NCBI GenBank assembly: GCA_034717835.1
Contig: JAYELZ010000273.1
Coordinates: 1-63,445 of the forward strand
From: Chloroflexota bacterium
GTDB lineage: Bacteria > Chloroflexota > Anaerolineae > B4-G1 > SLSP01
Length of the DNA stretch: 63,445 bases
Direction: 5' to 3'
Part shown: positions 48,294 through 56,753 of the stretch, in pieces
Numbering within the stretch: the stretch's first letter is position 1
Layout of the letters: each line of letters begins with the position of its first letter
Made by a program: the position numbers and the translations under genes
The notes under the pieces: model-generated
Seen by the model: the letters and a program-made list of their open reading frames with translations, nothing else
The model's database searches: none
What the model was told of the DNA's origin: nothing

Positions 48294-49223
48294 TTATTCC
48301 CGATTGAACGGTTTGGTCAGTGCGCTGGGAGTCTGGGCGCGTTGCCCGGCCAAGACCAGCGCCACGATGGTGAGCAGATAGGGCATCATCACCGCCATCT
48401 CCGAGGGGATAGGGATCCCTAGCGTCTGTACCCAGAGCTGTAAGGCGTTGACCATACTGAAGAGCAAGGCGCCAATCAAGACCCCGCCGGGTTTCCAGCC
48501 GCCAAAGTAAACCAGGGCCACCGCGATGAAGCCCAAGCCGCTGGTCAAGTTCTGTTGGAAGACGTTGAGCAGTGCGATGGAGAGTGAGGCTCCGGCCACG
48601 CCAGAGAGGGCGCCTCCCAGAGTGACGGTGAAGTAGCGCACGCGGCTCACGCTGACGCCCAACGAGTCCGCCGCGTCTGGATTTTCGCCCACCGCCCTGA
48701 TTTTCAATCCCAGGGTGGTCTTGTTTAGCAAGAACCAGGTGAGCGGCACCAGGGCAAACGCGATATAGACGAGGATATTGTGCTGGAAGAGGATCCTGCC
48801 CACCACGGGCAGCTCGCTCAACCAGGGGAAATGTAGCGGAGTGAAGCCACTGACGGTCTCCACCCGCCCCAATAACTTCTGGAAGAGCAAATCGCTCAAG
48901 CCCAGACCGAAGAGGTAGAAGCCGATGCCGCTGATGCCCTGCTTGGCCTGCAAGTTGATGCTCACGAAAGCCATCAGCAGTCCCATCAGCGCGCCCACCA
49001 AACCCGCTGCCAATAATGCCAACCACAAATTGCCGGTAGTGAGCGCTACGTAGAACCCTGCGAAGGCCCCCAATAACATCTGTCCTTCCACGCCCAAGTT
49101 GAGCACGCCGCTGCGCTGGCTGATCGTCTCGCCCAGTCCAGCATAGAGATAGGGTGTCGCCAAGCGAATGCCAGAAGCCAAAATGCCGATAATTACCCGC
49201 GCCGAGAAGAGATCTCTGATCAT
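48294..49223 (-). CDS. ABC transporter permease (nucleoside/BMP type)
   Basis: 309 aa polytopic, with a 4-nt overlap with the upstream permease gene. Confidence 0.88.
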   Translation of the reverse strand: MIRDLFSARVIIGILASGIRLATPYLYAGLGETISQRSGVLNLGVEGQMLLGAFAGFYVALTTGNLWLALLAAGLVGALMGLLMAFVSINLQAKQGISGIGFYLFGLGLSDLLFQKLLGRVETVSGFTPLHFPWLSELPVVGRILFQHNILVYIAFALVPLTWFLLNKTTLGLKIRAVGENPDAADSLGVSVSRVRYFTVTLGGALSGVAGASLSIALLNVFQQNLTSGLGFIAVALVYFGGWKPGGVLIGALLFSMVNALQLWVQTLGIPIPSEMAVMMPYLLTIVALVLAGQRAQTPSALTKPFNRE

Positions 49224-50350
49224 GCCGCTACCTCCTCTCCCTGTGGAACTGGCGGGGCAATATGCGCCTCGCTCAACCGCTGTTGGGCGCGCTTCTTACG
49301 CCAGAGCTCGCTGCTCACCACGAAGATCACCACCAACCCATTGAGCGTGGTAATCAAGGCGGCGGGTACCTGTACTGCGCGTTGCAGTTTGTTGGCCCCG
49401 ACCAACAAACCTCCAAAGAAGAAAGAAGCTGGAATCACTCCCAGTGGATGCAATTGTCCAAAGAGCGCGGCCACAATGCCGTTAAAACCGGCGTTCCCGG
49501 TAAATCCGGTCGCCGAACCATCGGTGAACATGCGATGATGGAGGCCGTAAACCTGCACCGCGCCGGCCAGCCCGGCCAATGCTCCACTCAAGAGCAACGA
49601 GAGTACGATATGTTGCGGCACTTTGATGCCGGCGTAACGCGAGGCGTGGGGATTAAGTCCTACCGCGCGAATGCGGTAGCCCAACGTGGTGCGCCAGAGG
49701 AGAATGTAGACGAGTATCGCCAGCACGACGGCCAGAGCAGCTCCCAGATGCAGGCGCGTGGGTGCTAGGCGGGGGAGGTCAAAGGCGTGCGCTAAACGCG
49801 CGGTCTGGGGAATGCGTGAGGAACGTTCCAGCTGTAGGGGATCAATGAGCGGGCCGATGAGCAGAAAGTTCATCAGCTGCACCGCGATCTGGTTCATCAT
49901 AATGGTGCTCAAAATCTCATTGACGTTGAAGTAAGCCTTCAAAACGCCGGGAATACCACCCCAGAGCGCGCCTCCCACTAGCCCCGCCAACATCCCCAGC
50001 GGGATAACCAACCAGCCGGATTGTTCCGGCAGCCATAAGCCCACGACCGTCGCGCTCAAGGCTCCGGCCACAAACTGCCCTTCGCCGCCGATGTTGGTGA
50101 CGCCGCCGCGAAAAGCGATACAGATTCCCAGCCCCACCAAGAGCAAAGGCGTCGCCTTGACCACCGTATCAGCCAGCGCGTTAGGATTGCCGAAGGCGCC
50201 CGCCAGCAACGCGCCATACGCGGTGCTGGGGTTGGCTCCCATGAAGAGCAACATAATAGCCCCGATGAATAAAGCCGCCAGAGTCGCCAGCACCGGGAGC
50301 AACGCGTCCACGAGCTGGGGGAGAGATAAAGAGTTGAACCATTTTTTCAT
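49220..50350 (-). CDS. ABC transporter permease (nucleoside/BMP type)
   Basis: 376 aa polytopic, NIGGEGQ motif. Confidence 0.88.
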   Translation of the reverse strand: MKKWFNSLSLPQLVDALLPVLATLAALFIGAIMLLFMGANPSTAYGALLAGAFGNPNALADTVVKATPLLLVGLGICIAFRGGVTNIGGEGQFVAGALSATVVGLWLPEQSGWLVIPLGMLAGLVGGALWGGIPGVLKAYFNVNEILSTIMMNQIAVQLMNFLLIGPLIDPLQLERSSRIPQTARLAHAFDLPRLAPTRLHLGAALAVVLAILVYILLWRTTLGYRIRAVGLNPHASRYAGIKVPQHIVLSLLLSGALAGLAGAVQVYGLHHRMFTDGSATGFTGNAGFNGIVAALFGQLHPLGVIPASFFFGGLLVGANKLQRAVQVPAALITTLNGLVVIFVVSSELWRKKRAQQRLSEAHIAPPVPQGEEVAA

Positions 50351-50466
50351 AACAACTACCTCGACAAATTACAAATAGGTAAATGGCAAAGATTTTTCCA
50401 CCACTAGACATGCGAGCGCAAATATAGTGTACTTCAGCGGCTCTTGAGCACGTTCAAATGATCTTT

Positions 50467-51087
50467 TCAACCAATAAAAACCCTAGACCCCAAATCATTA
50501 GGCCATCTAAGCTCTGGATTATCTAATTTCCGCGCTCGTTCAACGGCTACTTCAATATGAGGTAAGAAACGTCCCGGATTTAGATTTTTCTTATTATATT
50601 CCCCCAGTATTTCCAACAGTTCTGCCTCTAAACGGTTACGATTAGCGTTAATTCTGGCATTTACTTTGAATTCAGTTAGAGTCTCAGAGGTATAATCATC
50701 CAAAGATTTTAGATGTAAAAGCAACCACAATTCGAAACAAGGATTACTGACTGCCAAATTATAGTCTTTTTGTACACTTACTTGCGCGATTTCTGCTAGC
50801 TTAGCATCTCCCCAACGATCCACATCAATTACTAACCAAAACTCATCACCATTTTCCCAATCGTACTTACCCTGGAAGTCATCAAGGGTCTCCAAAACAT
50901 GCTTTGGAGAAGATTCTACGGGATTTTCCCTCTCTAATAGGTGAATTTTTACTTTAGAGTTTTGGTATTTAGCCGCTAATCCTCGAAAGTATTGAGGCTC
51001 AGTATTTGCTCCTTCAGAAGCAATAACGATTAAGCGCGCATCCCGTACACCACTTAGACGCTGGCGGGGCTTAAATTTCCGAGACAT
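50467..51087 (-). CDS. RloB-like (Toprim-related) protein
   Basis: RLIVIASEGANTEPQYF, WLVIDVDRW, AVSNPCFELWLLLHL. The ATG directly abuts the upstream stop. Confidence 0.8.
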   Translation of the reverse strand: MSRKFKPRQRLSGVRDARLIVIASEGANTEPQYFRGLAAKYQNSKVKIHLLERENPVESSPKHVLETLDDFQGKYDWENGDEFWLVIDVDRWGDAKLAEIAQVSVQKDYNLAVSNPCFELWLLLHLKSLDDYTSETLTEFKVNARINANRNRLEAELLEILGEYNKKNLNPGRFLPHIEVAVERARKLDNPELRWPNDLGSRVFIG

Positions 51088-52419
51088 CTACGTCTCCTCG
51101 CGCGTGCCAAATGTCATACTGCCAAAAACTGGAATAGCGCCATAGCGACCCAGCATATAGCCTTTTTCTATATCTTTATCGTATCGTGGGGCGTACTCTT
51201 CTAGTGAGTAGGTATGGGAAGCCCCCTGACGATCTTTTTCTACAAACCAGATCTCATCACGCCGCAACAACTCCAAGTCTAGCAGGTGGGATTCATGTGT
51301 AGTGGTAATGAGCTGACTTTCTGAAGCCTCATTACTTAAAAACAGTTTCACTAATTCATAACTAAGTTTAGAGTGTAAACTGCGATCTATCTCATCTACA
51401 ACAAACACCTTGTTCTCTTGGTCTGTTAACCCTGGTAACAGATCCAATAAACGACGCGTGCCATCAGATTCTTCCGCCATATTAAATAGAACATCTTCTT
51501 CACAATCCGACATCTGGTGGCGCAGCATAAGTTTGCTGGCTTGTAGCTCTTCATCAATAATTTGGACTATATACCGGCTGCCTTGAGAGTTACTTAAAAA
51601 CGCGCCACTTCTATTAGCATCCCGGCCTGATTTCAACAACGTAGCGGTTAATTTTTCTGGGAATTCTTTCAGGGGATCAACTTTGCTCAGCTCAAAACCA
51701 CAAATACCCGTCCCCAGTTGTTCCAGATATTTTACCAACTCACCCCCTAAACTCTGCTCAACCCAAATTATTGGTAATGCCAGATATTTAGAGTCTGGAA
51801 AAATAATAGTTAAGTTTTCCGCGAACCATTGATAAACATTTTGGAAGTTTTGCACATCGCGTTCCACGCTCTCCGTAAGAAATAATTGATTAGGGCGTGT
51901 TCCCATTGCCACAAAGTCAAGGAAATCACGTTCTTTTTGGTTCTCTGTCTGGATTTTCCCAAATTCTATCTCTGTTTCACCAGAAGAATTTGTCTCCCTC
52001 TCAAACAACATTGTTTCAGTGGTTTTCCTAATTTCATACAACCATTCTTCACGAATATGCTGGCGATCTAATTCAAAACCGTAGATGTAACAACGGTCAC
52101 CTGCTTTGATCTCAAACTCAAATTTAGAGGGTAGTTTTTTAGTTTCAGCCCTAAGCTTAAACCTGGTGCGCGGAATCATATCTTTCGCATGTGTACCCTC
52201 CACGATCAATTCTCTCGCAAAATCCATAGCCTTGATCAAATTTGATTTACCAGAGGCGTTAGCTCCGTAAAGCATAGCAATACGCAACATTGAGATGTCA
52301 TGCCTTCCAGTACTCTCAATGACATGAGTAGAATGCTTACGCATCTTACCTGGGATCATGGACAATTCAACTTCCTCATCAAAAGACAAGTAATTACTAA
52401 CATGGAATCTAATCAGCAT
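51088..52419 (-). CDS. AAA15/AAA21-type ABC-like ATPase (RloA/AbiLi/AriA-like)
   Basis: NYLSF...LYGANASGKSNLIKA Walker A, VFVVDEIDRSLHSKL Walker B, QLITTTHES. Confidence 0.85.
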   Translation of the reverse strand: MLIRFHVSNYLSFDEEVELSMIPGKMRKHSTHVIESTGRHDISMLRIAMLYGANASGKSNLIKAMDFARELIVEGTHAKDMIPRTRFKLRAETKKLPSKFEFEIKAGDRCYIYGFELDRQHIREEWLYEIRKTTETMLFERETNSSGETEIEFGKIQTENQKERDFLDFVAMGTRPNQLFLTESVERDVQNFQNVYQWFAENLTIIFPDSKYLALPIIWVEQSLGGELVKYLEQLGTGICGFELSKVDPLKEFPEKLTATLLKSGRDANRSGAFLSNSQGSRYIVQIIDEELQASKLMLRHQMSDCEEDVLFNMAEESDGTRRLLDLLPGLTDQENKVFVVDEIDRSLHSKLSYELVKLFLSNEASESQLITTTHESHLLDLELLRRDEIWFVEKDRQGASHTYSLEEYAPRYDKDIEKGYMLGRYGAIPVFGSMTFGTREET

Positions 52420-52748
52420 ACAATCTCTCTCCTTTAAGGTGATATTTTCTCCTCATCAACAAACATATTTAGTATAAAGGAGATTTAGTTGCTGTCAAGG
52501 AGAGTTTTTCACGAACAATACATATCAAAAATTACAACTGGCAATAAAACACTTCACTCGGCGCGCCAGAACTGCCACTCGTGCTCTCATTTGACGAACG
52601 TCTAGGGGCGGGAGGGGTCATCACTGCTGTGTCTCACTTGGTGGGTGGGCAAAGTGCTTCTTCTGGACAGCTCAGTTCAGATCATGTTTCTCAACCGTGC
52701 TAGCGGCTAAAAATTCATCTAATGGACGGTACAAGCAATGATATTGGT

Positions 52749-52846
52749 ATCAAAACAATACTCCTTGTTCCGCCTGCTCAAATGGCAAGTTCAAGTGTTC
52801 GTAAGCGCTCCGCGTGGCTCACGGTTCCCACGTCCTGACCGAGTTG
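52749..52846 (-). pseudogene. Relic duplicate of the ruvB 3' end
   Basis: The first 70 nt match 54271-54340 at about 91% (64/70). It translates to [22 protein letters not shown] against Ruv[23 protein letters not shown]. An upstream stop codon breaks the frame. Confidence 0.8.
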
Positions 52847-52902
52847 ATGCTCTATTTATTTTATGTTTGATCGCGCCAGGAAGATTCCCCTCGGCAGAAG
52901 AG

Positions 52903-54222
52903 CTAGCGTTGTTTTTGCTTGCTCCCATTTTGTTTTTGAGCCAAGTTATTCGCCTTCAGCAAGGCTACAATTTGATGGCGGGCGGTCTCATCCAAAGCTT
53001 TGCCGCGTGTCAGATCTTCACCGATAAATTTCCCCCGGGTCAATTGCCATACAGGCACCGTGGGTTTACTGAGAAGTAATTTACTCCGCGAAGCCCATAC
53101 AACTCGTGGCTCTATCCATACCGTCACATCACATTGTTGAAGATAGTCGTGTAATCGTTGTGCATTCCTCTGAGCTTGACGACCAGGGTTGCGGCTTAGC
53201 TTGTGCCAGAGGGGGCCGTATTTCCGTTGCCAGCTGTCACCGATGTTGCGATGGGTGCCGGAGAAAGTTTTGATTTCCAACGCATATATGCCATTGGGAC
53301 CAATTAGGATTGCATCAATATCATCTTGCCTACCAGGTAAAATGATATTGCGGAAAAGTGTCCAACGTTGATTCAGATTATTACGTAATGCTTTGGCTAC
53401 TAGTTGCTCGCCTTTACGACCTTTCTTATAATTCTCGATTTCATCTATAAGCTGCTCTGCTCGTGGCAAGATAAGTAATGCCCCTACCAATAGCGCGCCA
53501 GATGCGACTAGCCAACCTAATGATACTTGTGCCAGGTGGAGAAGCTGCACAATTACAACAACCACGCCGATAAACAATGACAACAGCCATAAGTCGAGAA
53601 CCACTACCATTAAAATTGCTGCCCAATGTTGTCTACGTCGCAACTGTTGCGTCAAATACTTACTACCGTTGACGATTTGCAGTGTTTGCTTAGAATCGGA
53701 GGCGACAGGTGCCGGAGCGACACCTATCGAAGGTATAGCTGCGGTATGGATAGGGACAGCGGAAGGTGTGAGGGATACTTGCCGAATTTGATTTTTGGCT
53801 AAGCCCTTTCGCTCTAGGGGCGTCAGTTGCCGGCATACAATTTCTGCTCCCAGCACCGCTGCCGCACTCCGTAATTCCTGCGTATAGGCGTTAGCTACGG
53901 CATAAGCTAAATCGTGTAGGTTGATAATCTGCTTGTCTAAGAGATTCCCAATAGGTTGATTTAGGCCTTTGAAAGGCCAGACGACTCTTCGTGCTACAGT
54001 TGGAAGAAGCATTACCTGTTGCAAATTTTGGGCCTGGAGCTCTACCGCCGCGGCCCACTTGATTTTGGGATCAAAATATTTCTCGGCGGCCCAATTTAAA
54101 TCTTGCTTATTTACTTCACCAGAGGCTAACAATTCGCCCAGTGGACGGTGCAACTTCTTGATCGGCCAAATGACGTTGTTGGCTAGCTCAATGATATCTG
54201 GTCCTTTCCATTCTTCAATCAT
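52903..54222 (-). CDS. Membrane protein with two N-terminal about 50-aa repeats, two TM helices and a C-terminal NERD (nuclease-related) domain
   Basis: Repeats VIWPIKKLHRPLGELL..DLNWA / VVWPFKGLNQPIGNLL..DLAYA. TM at residues 200-228 and 234-253. NERD: GRKGEQLVAKAL...DIDAILIGPNGIYALEIKTFSG. Confidence 0.8.
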   Translation of the reverse strand: MIEEWKGPDIIELANNVIWPIKKLHRPLGELLASGEVNKQDLNWAAEKYFDPKIKWAAAVELQAQNLQQVMLLPTVARRVVWPFKGLNQPIGNLLDKQIINLHDLAYAVANAYTQELRSAAAVLGAEIVCRQLTPLERKGLAKNQIRQVSLTPSAVPIHTAAIPSIGVAPAPVASDSKQTLQIVNGSKYLTQQLRRRQHWAAILMVVVLDLWLLSLFIGVVVVIVQLLHLAQVSLGWLVASGALLVGALLILPRAEQLIDEIENYKKGRKGEQLVAKALRNNLNQRWTLFRNIILPGRQDDIDAILIGPNGIYALEIKTFSGTHRNIGDSWQRKYGPLWHKLSRNPGRQAQRNAQRLHDYLQQCDVTVWIEPRVVWASRSKLLLSKPTVPVWQLTRGKFIGEDLTRGKALDETARHQIVALLKANNLAQKQNGSKQKQR

Positions 54223-54271
54223 GACCGCTCGCCTAAGTTTTTGTTAACATAAAGAGTTGGGGTAATATGCA

Positions 54272-55294
54272 TCAAAACAATATTCCCTGTTCCACCTGCT
54301 CAAATGGCAAGTTCAAGTGTTCGTAGGCGTTCCGGGTGGCGGTGCGACCACGTGGCGTGCGGTTGAGAAACCCTAATTGCAAGAGATACGGTTCCACCAC
54401 ATCCATGATGGTATCCGGGGCCTCGCCGATGGAGGCCGCGATGGTATCCAAGCCCACCGGCCCGCCGCCAAACTTCTCTATGATGGCGTGCAGCACTCGG
54501 CGATCTAAATTATCTAGACCGGCCTCGTCAATTTCTAACAATGCTGTTGCCTCCTCCGCAATTTTTCCGGTGATGATGCCGTCCCCGCGCACCTGAGCGT
54601 AATCGCGGACGCGGCGCAGGAGGCGTAGCGCGACGCGCGGCGTCCCCCGGCCGCGACGGGCGATCTCAATCCGACCTTGCGGTTCGAGCGGTACCGCAAG
54701 CACTTTGGCGGCGCGCTCCACAATCTGCTCCAGGGCCGCTTGCTCGTAGAAATCCAGCCGGTAGGTGGCTCCGAAGCGCGTGCGCAGCGGCGCGGAGAGG
54801 AGCGCCAGCCGGGTAGTCGCTCCCACCACCGTAAAGCGCGGCAAACTCAGACGGACGGTTCGCGCCCCCGGCCCCTGACCGATTACCAGATCCAGGGCGA
54901 AATCTTCCATGGCCGGGTAGAGGATCTCTTCCACCACTTTGCCCAGACGGTGAATCTCGTCGATGAAGAGCACTTCCTTCTCACGTAGGTTGCTAAGGAT
55001 AGCTGCCAAGTCCCCGGCGCGTTCAATCGCCGGCCCAGAGGTGACGTGAATAGCAGTCCCCATCTCATTGGCGCAGATGCGGGCCAGCGTGGTTTTTCCT
55101 AACCCTGGCGGGCCATAGAATAATGTATGCTCCAGGGCTTCGCCGCGCCCTTGCGCGGCGTCGAGCAGGATACGCAAATTCTCTCGCACGCGATCTTGGC
55201 CGATGAGTGCTGCTAGTCGCTGGGGACGTAGCGCGCGGTCCAAAATGGGTTCTTCGAGGGTGGCTTCGGGTGCTATGGTGCGTGGTCTAGTCAT
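54272..55294 (-). CDS. ruvB: Holliday junction branch migration helicase RuvB
   Basis: [36 protein letters not shown]. Confidence 0.96.
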
Positions 55295-55301
55295 CTTACC
55301 T

Positions 55302-55400
55302 CTTGTCGGGTAGTCGGGTAGTCGTTAGTCAGGTAGTCAAATTGCCATGCGCCATTGGCTGATTTGTTGGTCACTCGCTGGCTGAGCCGCTAACCCACTG
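55302..55400. repeat. 7-8-nt-period word repeats (GTAGTCGG then TTGCCAT)
   Basis: cttgtcgggtagtcgggtagtcgttagtcaggtagtcaaattgccatgcgccattggctgatttgttgg. Confidence 0.75.
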
Positions 55401-56753
55401 CTATTGTTGGTAATCTGCCCCTAGAATAACAATGATATCATAGACCGAGGAAGGATCAGCGCCATTTACCACCGCGCTCGCGGGCAAATTCAATACAGCC
55501 CTGATTTTTTCTGCCGTGATAGGTTTAGGGCGATAGAGAATGATCACGGACTCGGCATAATCCTGCCGGTCAGCGTTGGAGGCTTCTCTCACATCCAATC
55601 CTTGTGCTTTGAGCTGTTCACTCACTTCCGTTGCCAAGCCGGGGCGCACAGTTCCGTTGCGCACGGAGAGCGTCGCTTGTTCGTCAGCTGGTGTCACTTC
55701 TTCCCCCAGATTGTCTACTGTGCCAAAGACATAATCGCGCACCTCACGCATCCGGTCACGAAGCGGAATCAGCACTTGCGCGCCCTGCGGTGTGATCCAG
55801 TTTTGGGTACAACTGGTATCAATTACGCCGAAACGAATCTCCTCGCGATTTACCTGAAGTGCCAAGCCACTCAGCGCCAGGATTTCATCTAACTGCATAT
55901 CGGTACTCACGGACTCTTCCAAGGTGGTGAAGATTTGAGGAGCCTTTCGGGCCAACTGCGGCAACATCTGCAAGCTGGTAACGCGCTCTAGCAAGGCGAC
56001 CATGACTTGTTGCTGACGGCGGGCGCGGTCGAAATCCCCGGTGCCGTGACGGGTGCGCGCGTACTTGAGCGCCATCTCGCCATCAAAGTGATGCGGCCCC
56101 GCCTCGATATGCAAGACTTCTATGCCGTAATCGCTAGTGGGATAGGCAGTATCGTGCAGCGTCTGCTCCACATCAATATCCACCCCGCCGACCAAATCTA
56201 CCAACTTGATGAATCCCTGGAAGTTGAGCCGAACGTAATAATCGACCGGCACACCGAAATTATATTGCACTGTCTCCATGGCCAGCGCCGGCCCGCCACC
56301 GGGATGATCATAGAGGTCGCCCAGGAAGTGCGCTGTATTGATGCGGTTGCCATCTTCTGCATAGCCGGGGATGGGAACCCAGAGGTCGCGCGGAATAGAG
56401 AGCACCCCCGCCTGCAACGTTGTCGGATCTAACGTTACCAACATGATCGTATCAGTGCGGAACGGGCCGCTTTCCTGCTGCCGTTCGTCAATCCCCAAGA
56501 CCAAAATAGTGACTCGGTCATTGCTGACCCACGTGGGAATCACTTGACCTAGCCGTCGTTCCACATGTTCACTGGTCTCAGTCGAAGCGCTTACCCCAGG
56601 TATCACGCCAGCATCCGAAATTCGCGCGCGTGTCCAGGAGAAGAGAAATCGCGCAGCCATAAATCCCACGCCCAAGAAAACCACTAGCAGCAAGCCGGTC
56701 AGAATCAACGGCAAAGTATTGTTCTTTTGATAAGCGTCTCTATCTGTCATCAT
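55401..56753 (-). CDS. LCP (LytR-CpsA-Psr) family protein with C-terminal LytR_C domain
   Basis: N-terminal TM, ILVLGIDER...RTDTIMLVTLDP...LSIPRDLWV. Confidence 0.85.
   Translation of the reverse strand: MMTDRDAYQKNNTLPLILTGLLLVVFLGVGFMAARFLFSWTRARISDAGVIPGVSASTETSEHVERRLGQVIPTWVSNDRVTILVLGIDERQQESGPFRTDTIMLVTLDPTTLQAGVLSIPRDLWVPIPGYAEDGNRINTAHFLGDLYDHPGGGPALAMETVQYNFGVPVDYYVRLNFQGFIKLVDLVGGVDIDVEQTLHDTAYPTSDYGIEVLHIEAGPHHFDGEMALKYARTRHGTGDFDRARRQQQVMVALLERVTSLQMLPQLARKAPQIFTTLEESVSTDMQLDEILALSGLALQVNREEIRFGVIDTSCTQNWITPQGAQVLIPLRDRMREVRDYVFGTVDNLGEEVTPADEQATLSVRNGTVRPGLATEVSEQLKAQGLDVREASNADRQDYAESVIILYRPKPITAEKIRAVLNLPASAVVNGADPSSVYDIIVILGADYQQ

Follow-up and report, generated by a model that had tools for sequence, protein, structure and literature searches.

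The abortive infection (Abi) system AbiL was first found on a plasmid of Lactococcus lactis, and we know of no molecular target for it, even in the type system. In the work on PARIS, AbiL is grouped with systems that join an AAA15/21 ATP-binding cassette (ABC) ATPase to a TOPRIM nuclease (PMC11464382). NERD domains are known in the Mokosh, Nhi-like, and HEC-02 systems, and HEC-02, which pairs an ABC ATPase with a NERD protein, is a validated defense system (10.1101/2024.01.29.577857). Here, we describe an AT-rich islet of 3.9 kb that encodes an ABC-type ATPase, an RloB-family protein, and a NERD protein and that lies directly behind ruvB in a Chloroflexota bacterium. The window, i.e., the whole stretch of DNA that was analyzed, is a 63,445-nt contig of a Thermoflexia metagenome-assembled genome (MAG) of 276 contigs, here designated G000; all positions are coordinates of this contig. 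We conclude that the islet probably comprises two independently acquired accessory modules, an AbiL pair and a NERD cassette, which occupy a variable hotspot immediately following ruvB in a single small lineage of Thermoflexia.

Modules of the islet behind ruvB

The compositionally deviant block extends from 50351 to 54271 and thus fills the interval between the start of the ABC-permease gene (50350) and the ruvB stop codon (54272); all genes from 48294 to 56753 are on the minus strand (Table 1). Within this block lies a second, displaced copy of the ruvB 3' end. Positions 52749-52818 are identical to 54271-54340 at 64 of 70 nucleotides (91%), starting one base past the ruvB stop codon, while the next ~45 nt of the remnant are ~55% identical to ruvB and contain stop codons, so that in translation the ruvB end is preceded by stops. 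A previous reading of the letters and open reading frames (ORFs) of this stretch (here, the sequence-only reading) had described the duplicated ruvB end as the insertion scar of a single three-gene islet. The duplication itself is borne out, but it does not mark the edge of the islet: the copy sits between AbiL and NERD and, therefore, brackets only a 1.45-kb NERD cassette. Because this remnant and a separate promoter split the islet, we consider it as two modules rather than one. Moreover, AbiL was found without NERD and NERD without AbiL at other loci examined, which argues that the two modules are independent.

The sequence-only reading had also reported a GC content of 33-42% at 50411-54270 against ~65% in the flanks. 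The contrast is real, but both the extent, which is given above, and the figures had to be revised. Overall, the islet has a GC content of 44% (41% for AbiL and 47% for NERD; 38-50% in 300-nt windows), compared with 58-62% for the flanking ABC-permease and ruvB genes and a genome mean of 55.3% (SD, 3.8%; 2-kb windows). The 2-kb window covering AbiL has the second-lowest GC content among 5252 genome windows (0.04th percentile), the NERD gene falls at the 1.9th percentile, and the tetranucleotide distance peaks at the AbiL region, where it is the largest on the contig. Together with the presence of RloB in only 8 of the 71 genomes of the family and the lack of AbiL at this site in the closest relatives, these percentiles support the proposal that the stretch is foreign and accessory.

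Using Pfam, all three gene assignments were confirmed (RloB, E value of 1.3e-32; AAA_21/AAA_15, 7.8e-33; NERD, 1.5e-21), and all three proteins score for defense-associated families with Pfam and PADLOC. In agreement with the sequence-only reading, no integrase, transposase, or tRNA is present, as far as a tRNA scan and a search for tyrosine recombinases (PF00589; none on the 63-kb contig) can tell, serine recombinases not having been searched; the islet also lacks an Rfam match. No terminators are predicted between ruvB and NERD or between the three islet genes. The four spacers are unique relative to the genome and all loci by BLAST, the junction sequences are unique, and an ORF at 52738-53079 has no family match in Pfam.

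Table 1. Features of the islet and its immediate neighbors in the window
Feature	Position	Strand	Basis or remark
ABC permeases	48294-50350	-	PF02653 permease alone confirmed (Pfam)
Distal islet spacer	50351-50466	-	AT-rich; single-copy in genome (BLAST); now 5' leader of ABC-permease gene
abiLii, RloB-family, Toprim-like, 206 aa	50467-51087	-	Pfam, PADLOC
abiLi, ABC-type AAA_21/AAA_15 ATPase, 443 aa	51088-52419	-	PADLOC, Pfam
Spacer between abiLi and ruvB remnant, 329 nt	52420-52748	.	Unique sequence; ORFs without family hit
Candidate sigma-70-like promoter, TTGACA-16-TATACT	52471-52498	-	11/12 consensus match only
Displaced, decayed ruvB 3'-end copy	52749-52860	-	Alignment; tblastn, E value of 1.1e-5
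Membrane-anchored NERD (PD-(D/E)xK-like) protein, 439 aa	52903-54222	-	Pfam, alignment, AlphaFold
Spacer between NERD start and ruvB stop, 49 nt	54223-54271	-	Homologous to spacer after G006 remnant 1
ruvB, live gene	54272-55294	-	Pfam RuvB_N/lid/C; repeated tail is the last ~46-70 nt (54272-54340)
LytR-family gene	55401-56753	-	

The ruvB tail as a site of insertion

A search of genome contigs with the NERD protein returned only 'Thermoflexia bacterium G713' (G006), which belongs to the same genus as G000 and has a 92% identical RuvB. In this genome, ruvB is followed by an 83-aa vapB-like gene and a PIN toxin gene, a first ruvB remnant, the NERD gene, a second ruvB remnant, and core genes, and a metagenome contig of the G006 population has the same arrangement. 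The remnants measure ~70-115 nt in G000 and ~80 and 115-135 nt in G006. The sequence-only reading had held that the same genes at the same place with native composition in relatives would argue against a foreign islet. For NERD, this is half the case, as the G006 gene occupies the same site with a GC content of 53%, but its product is only 69% identical to that of G000.

G004, the closest relative (RuvB, 95% identity), has no remnant and different cargo. Downstream of ruvB in this genome (contig C331, 4466-7331; L013), there are three ORFs, one of 101 aa and two in which Rhs-type core-end motifs (YDPVLGRFISAD ... NRYAYCLNNPLRYVDPTGH) were recognized by eye ahead of divergent C-termini; these two ORFs look like orphan polymorphic-toxin tips and have no Pfam match.

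In G002, G007, G003, and G005, the gene for a conserved membrane protein of ~520 aa comes directly after ruvB, together with a LytR paralog in inverted orientation, at native GC content, and this arrangement serves as the empty site. Among the 71 genomes of the family, ruvB remnants were detected in two, G000 and G006. Because insertions are stacked in G006, four distant members of the genus are empty, and remnants are confined to these 2 of 71 genomes, the ruvB tail is, as judged from gene order, a lineage-restricted hotspot for serial insertion.

The remnants and the resident genes are mosaics. For this comparison, the last ~100 nt of ruvB were divided at a conserved TACGAACA, with the 5' part taken as the arm and the 3' part as the tail. 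The ruvB genes of G000 and G004 are 98% identical in the arm and 80% in the tail; those of G004 and G006 are 80% identical in the arm and 98% in the tail. The G000 gene and its own remnant share 55% of the arm and 93% of the tail, and G006 remnants 1 and 2 share 52% and 98%, respectively. The breakpoint adjoins TACGAACA in all three ruvB comparisons, and the mosaic pattern suggests that recombination took place repeatedly at or near TACGAACA. Furthermore, remnant 1 of G006 has an arm of the G000/G004 allele type, with an internal deletion, and not of the allele of G006 itself, which argues that this arm was imported with foreign DNA. At the protein level, RuvB ends in PFEQVEQG[I/L]LF, encoded by AT-rich codons (the last ~15 codons), in G000, G004, and G006 and in PYDxxMEQGTLF in nine other family genomes examined; the changed part (54272-54320) is the part repeated as a "fence" beside the cassettes. 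This pattern is consistent with an old replacement of the ruvB end in the three-genome subclade. A 16-nt deletion that appeared to be common to the G000 remnant and G006 remnant 1 was discarded, as a global alignment of six tails shows none in the G000 copy.

These data fit cassettes that carry their own copy of the ruvB tail and recombine with the resident tail. The NERD cassette would have come in through a recombination event within the final ~50-115 nt of ruvB, with the incoming DNA bringing its own tail copy; ruvB would consequently stay intact, and the distal boundary of the cassette would be marked by the displaced tail. In G006, vapBC would have been stacked before NERD in the same way. 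Either a trans-acting recombinase or host homologous or illegitimate recombination, including that of the long target duplication type, could have made the crossover.

A possible, albeit doubtful, explanation is that the locus is the relic of an integrase-borne island, i.e., of a tyrosine- or serine-recombinase element with an attP mimicking the ruvB 3' end that inserted more than once and later lost its integrase, leaving cassettes between att sites that are mobilizable in cis like the cis-mobilizable elements (CIMEs) of Streptococcus ICEs. The direct repeats start at a housekeeping gene's stop codon and leave that gene restored, the same breakpoint by TACGAACA is implied across three genomes, the imported 5' arm found in remnant 1 of G006 is compatible with an att site carried by the cassette, and one NERD homolog (P0005) is followed by a tyrosine integrase. 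Long att sites within protein-coding genes do exist, as exemplified by Tn5253 with its 83-bp attB in rbgA (PMC8571831). However, PF00589 is absent from the 46-kb G006 contig C115 as well as from the window, in searches that did not include serine recombinases, and genome-wide G006 has only Xer-like hits. The cassettes have one to two genes each and no other element genes, pattern scans placed the tail on no viral or metagenome contig, and the fences lack binding-site symmetry or a hairpin. The fences also fold no better than shuffled sequences (z of -0.5 to +0.7) and have no attC-like hairpin; with no such folding in the fences and no tyrosine integrase on the contig, we see neither the attC sites nor the intI of an integron array.

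We hold as equally tentative the alternative that incoming DNA was anchored on ruvB homology and joined by host functions, with the recipient's tail being duplicated, as described for restriction-modification (R-M) genes under the name of long target duplication. The tail copies are more alike within a genome (93-98%) than between genomes (70-80%), the lengths of the remnants vary, and mobility genes are lacking. The locus also agrees with the published description of such insertions (insert of <20 kb, repeat of >30 bp, no mobile-element genes, and a single copy in a related genome [PMC2853133]), with an insert of 1.45 kb, a repeat of 70 nt, and one ruvB tail in G004 and four other members of the genus. 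By contrast, the 5' arm of G006 remnant 1 was not copied from the ruvB gene of G006, the breakpoints coincide instead of being scattered, and the mechanism has never been shown experimentally, as discussed in PMC2853133.

Finally, and in our view rather unlikely, the last ~50-115 nt of ruvB could be a portable recombination site, of which the NERD, vapBC, and perhaps AbiL cassettes each carry a copy. The cassettes would then be swapped and stacked without an integrase of their own by a fixed crossover by TACGAACA, made by a recombinase in trans or by a host pathway. If true, this would represent an undescribed, integron-like mobility of defense genes built on gene tails.

The AbiL and NERD proteins

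The ATPase matches the PADLOC model for AbiLi (PDLC02335) over residues 1-438 with an E value of 2.9e-88, and the RloB protein matches that for AbiLii (5.3e-20), while AriA, HEC-01A, and other ABC-ATPase models score far weaker on the ATPase. The abiLi stop (51088) abuts the abiLii start (51087) on the same strand, and a consensus scan identified a candidate sigma-70-like promoter ~50 nt upstream of abiLi. The translated AbiLi shows a Walker A motif (GANASGKS) and a Walker B motif (VVDEID), and the acidic motifs SEGANTE and VIDVDRW of AbiLii are conserved in an alignment of its homologs. Thus, by the criteria of sequence and arrangement, the ATPase-RloB pair is AbiL, in contrast to the earlier suggestion that the combination matches no named system.

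AbiLi has at least 7976 homologs, of which the nearest (82-70% identity) are from Chloroflexota MAGs. At five Chloroflexota loci examined, AbiLi is always paired with RloB, and the pair lies alone between unrelated housekeeping genes without an integrase. DNA homology to other AbiL copies is confined to 50457-52451. In four copies (this segment, L034, L036, and L038; 70-82% amino acid identity), the module has a GC content of 39-42%, compared with 47-57% in the flanks. The limits of homology and the constant low GC content suggest that the two-gene module is the unit that moves, and the low GC content in every AbiL host suggests that it belongs to the module. Hence, the AbiL module seems to maintain its low GC content, which would then not be the sign of one recent transfer. 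Within the genus, RloB was found besides G000 only in G003, where it is on another contig. G000 also contains a second, degraded RloB fragment (contig C71, 4710-4955) with 46% identity across residues 124-205 and an internal TAG.

Compared with three Chloroflexota homologs, abiLii has a 2-nt deletion (GGGTTT--TTATTGG; 50453-50480). The frame now stops at 50467 instead of at the ancestral TGA at 50453-50455, and the C-terminal LLAEKII (~7 residues) is lost; accordingly, 50453-50466 is the frameshifted original end of abiLii. Because AbiL has been grouped with the systems of ABC ATPase and TOPRIM nuclease (PMC11464382), we propose a sensor-plus-nuclease scheme, in which the ABC-type ATPase AbiLi would presumably sense the infection and the RloB/Toprim-like AbiLii would presumably act as the nuclease effector. 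As in OLD-family systems and PARIS, the nuclease would be released or activated in response to a cue from the phage, and phage growth would no longer be supported in the infected cell.

On the distal side of AbiL, homology with the ABC-permease ortholog of G006 (91% at the nucleotide level) breaks off precisely at 50351, a single base ahead of the start codon (contig C115 of G006, 40169). In G006, 36 kb separate the ABC operon from ruvB, the orientation is the opposite one, and a sigma-factor gene lies upstream of the operon; in three other members of the genus, a hotdog-fold gene is upstream of the ABC permease. Because synteny breaks at 50351 and the G006 operon is remote and inverted, the adjacency of ruvB and the ABC operon appears peculiar to G000 and implies a rearrangement, an inversion or other, with a breakpoint in the hotspot. 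The permease operon has an AT-rich, islet-derived leader and no predicted terminator upstream. AbiL, which lies beyond the displaced tail, could have been taken up earlier by the same hotspot or could have been inserted separately, and a later rearrangement would have joined it to the start of the ABC-permease operon. A candidate third ruvB remnant distal to AbiL (50351-50480), recognized by eye, was rejected, since its local alignment was no better than those of shuffled sequences or other windows (p ~0.09).

The NERD protein belongs to a family of 29 proteins, mostly from Chloroflexota, retrieved in a search of 5.8 billion. In the alignment, two N-terminal repeats of ~45 aa (WPFK.L.RP.GELL...DL.WA...VKWAAAV) are followed by a variable Pro/Ala-rich linker, two hydrophobic helices, and the C-terminal NERD domain; some longer members have an N-terminal TPR or Mrr-like extension. 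D301, D303, E316, and K318 are invariant in 27 sequences, and the Pfam NERD match spans the full model. The AlphaFold model (predicted local distance difference test [pLDDT] score, 88.5) contains the two repeats, a disordered linker (residues 147-176), a long two-helix hairpin, and an alpha/beta NERD core. Using Foldseek against the PDB, we obtained nothing at an E value of <= 0.001; the weak matches were all PD-(D/E)xK nucleases (Can2 and R2 endonuclease; best E value, 0.1). A profile search of the PDB matched only the TPR extension of the longer members, which the protein encoded by 52903-54222 lacks. An unnamed 239-aa viral protein in BFVD (A0A7G8LKC0) matches the NERD model in Foldseek with an E value of 3e-6 and a TM-score of 0.55 on the target, and may, based on the models, be a phage-borne relative of the hairpin-plus-NERD part.

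Because the protein has two membrane helices, both of its soluble domains are expected on the same side of the membrane, presumably in the cytoplasm. The two-helix hairpin would hold the PD-(D/E)xK-type NERD domain at the cytoplasmic face of the membrane, in a protein that also carries a duplicated N-terminal domain with a fold of unrecognized type. Between the NERD genes of G000 and G006, dN/dS (the ratio of nonsynonymous to synonymous divergence) is 0.22, which argues that the gene is live. The synonymous divergence (dS) of NERD is 0.90, twice that of the flanking core genes (0.46 for ruvB and 0.36 for the ABC permease), which argues for separate acquisition or replacement. Thus, the NERD gene is probably functional, and each of the two lineages probably acquired or replaced it on its own.

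In three metagenomic contexts (L021 and L041-L043), type I R-M genes (hsdS, hsdR, or a fragment encoding HsdR_N) lie directly upstream of genes for NERD homologs, and the R-M-linked homolog P0005 is the one followed by the integrase, which is small; other neighbors encode HicB, VapBC, or AddB/UvrD plus a CHAT protease. With PADLOC, the NERD protein matches only the NERD regions of PglW, MkoA, and PDC-M16A. From the domain content and gene neighborhoods, the NERD protein is most likely a stand-alone defense nuclease, with its membrane tether keeping it away from the chromosome.

Several points speak against our interpretation of the islet as two modules in a hotspot. The remnants occur in two genomes only, plus one metagenome contig of the G006 population. 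No remnant that would mark its route of entry is present distal to AbiL. Both tail copies in G000 carry the same unusual allele, which would not be expected from one simple integration and calls for two events or gene conversion. The neighborhood encodes no recombinase, the tyrosine recombinases of G006 number just one or two and are Xer-like, and exact-pattern scans of metagenome and viral collections for the conserved tail gave 0 hits. The contigs are MAG assemblies, and the AbiL/ABC junction is backed by one contig only. Because the C-terminus of AbiLii is truncated, the AbiL copy may be impaired, or the deletion may be an assembly error. The functional statements rest on homology or gene context throughout. 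Lastly, the membrane NERD protein SmdA of Staphylococcus acts in cell division (PMC9040797).

The latter observation raises the alternative that the NERD protein is not a defense protein and is instead a housekeeping or envelope factor, like SmdA, which is needed for cell division, or a nuclease of DNA uptake. The NERD gene lies behind the LytR-family gene and ruvB, with no terminator between ruvB and NERD, and is under purifying selection, all of which would suit such a role. Nevertheless, the gene is absent from most of the genus and family, its family comprises 29 proteins among 5.8 billion, and its slot is variable and shared with toxin-antitoxin (TA) and Abi genes. In addition, its homologs adjoin R-M, TA, and integrase genes, and the D/D/E/K residues are intact here, whereas SmdA lacks several conserved NERD residues (PMC9040797). 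We, therefore, regard a role outside defense as improbable.

That the contig was misjoined at the ruvB tail or at the AbiL/ABC boundary might be suspected from the 276 contigs of the MAG and from the break in synteny with G006 exactly at 50351 and around the hotspot. However, the repeat is only 70 nt at 91% identity and, thus, shorter than typical reads, the ruvB-NERD-remnant architecture recurs in two independent assemblies of another species, and the junctions are unique, making an assembly artifact very unlikely. That NERD, AAA ATPase, and RloB act together as one novel three-gene defense system is hardly credible, although the genes lie on one strand within 3.9 kb without a predicted terminator between them and an ABC ATPase-NERD pair is validated as HEC-02 (10.1101/2024.01.29.577857), because the three were never together at the other loci examined, NERD and abiLi are separated by a ruvB remnant, a 329-nt spacer, and abiLi's own promoter, the NERD protein has no HEC-02B match, and the modules differ in GC content (47% and 41%).

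Comparison with described systems

The AbiL pair is a known system, and the NERD family is uncharacterized but built from known parts. This AbiL resembles the type system in its two abutting genes on one strand, a full-length AbiLi-model ATPase, and an RloB-family AbiLii; it differs in that it resides on a Chloroflexota chromosome and not on a plasmid, has a truncated AbiLii, and is known here from its genes alone. It shares with PARIS and OLD-family systems the ATPase superfamily (AriA model against the N-terminal half, 1e-32) and the logic of a sensor ATPase with a Toprim-type effector. Unlike in PARIS, the effector is RloB (PF13707) and not DUF4435, with no DUF4435 or AriB match for AbiLii in Pfam and PADLOC, and the best model for the ATPase is AbiLi and not AriA; tRNA cleavage is the mechanism described for PARIS. 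The locus adds a clean Chloroflexota example of AbiL as a module of ~40% GC in flanks of 47-57%.

The NERD protein has no match to the HEC-02B model in PADLOC, and ATPase and NERD are not paired at any other locus, which sets the islet apart from HEC-02. In function, the NERD protein would be comparable to SNIPE (10.1101/2025.11.03.685801), a nuclease bound to the membrane that cleaves phage DNA while it is being injected. The two are similar in that a nuclease domain would be tethered to the inner membrane, on its cytoplasmic side, alongside an extra globular domain, and for both proteins tethering is proposed to prevent self-cleavage. However, SNIPE has one transmembrane helix, DUF4041, and GIY-YIG, while the NERD protein has a two-helix hairpin, a duplicated N-terminal domain, and PD-(D/E)xK; the two are unrelated in sequence and fold, and Pfam finds NERD only. 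With type I R-M, TA, and Abi genes as neighbors, this small family of predicted membrane-tethered NERD nucleases provides reasonable candidates for one-gene defense.

At the level of the locus, the stacking of ruvB-tail fences offers a small natural example in which to ask how defense cassettes without an integrase move, a question that was raised for R-M genes in 2000 and has had no experimental answer since. The value of the locus is mainly that of one further data point, and current views are not overturned: the ruvB locus is a clear but fairly ordinary phage-defense hotspot. As in hotspots flanked by core genes and in CIMEs, direct repeats duplicate the 3' end of the target gene (70 nt, 91%, with two further remnants in G006), the slot is variable, with TA, Abi, and nuclease genes that differ among close relatives, and att-like repeats lie between the units. 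Unlike in CIMEs, there are no relics of integrase or conjugation genes, the units consist of one to two genes, and the arrangement is found in two species of one genus. As in long target duplications (Nobusato et al. 2000; Furuta et al. 2010, PMC2853133), a small low-GC defense insert without mobility genes is flanked by repeats of >30 bp that overlap the 3' end of a gene and are single copy in relatives; here, by contrast, the cargo is NERD, or vapBC in G006, and not R-M, the inserts are stacked at one site, and one arm of a fence is imported. Altogether, the fenced-cassette architecture matches published long target duplication insertions and accretion at att sites, while its cargo and stacking differ.

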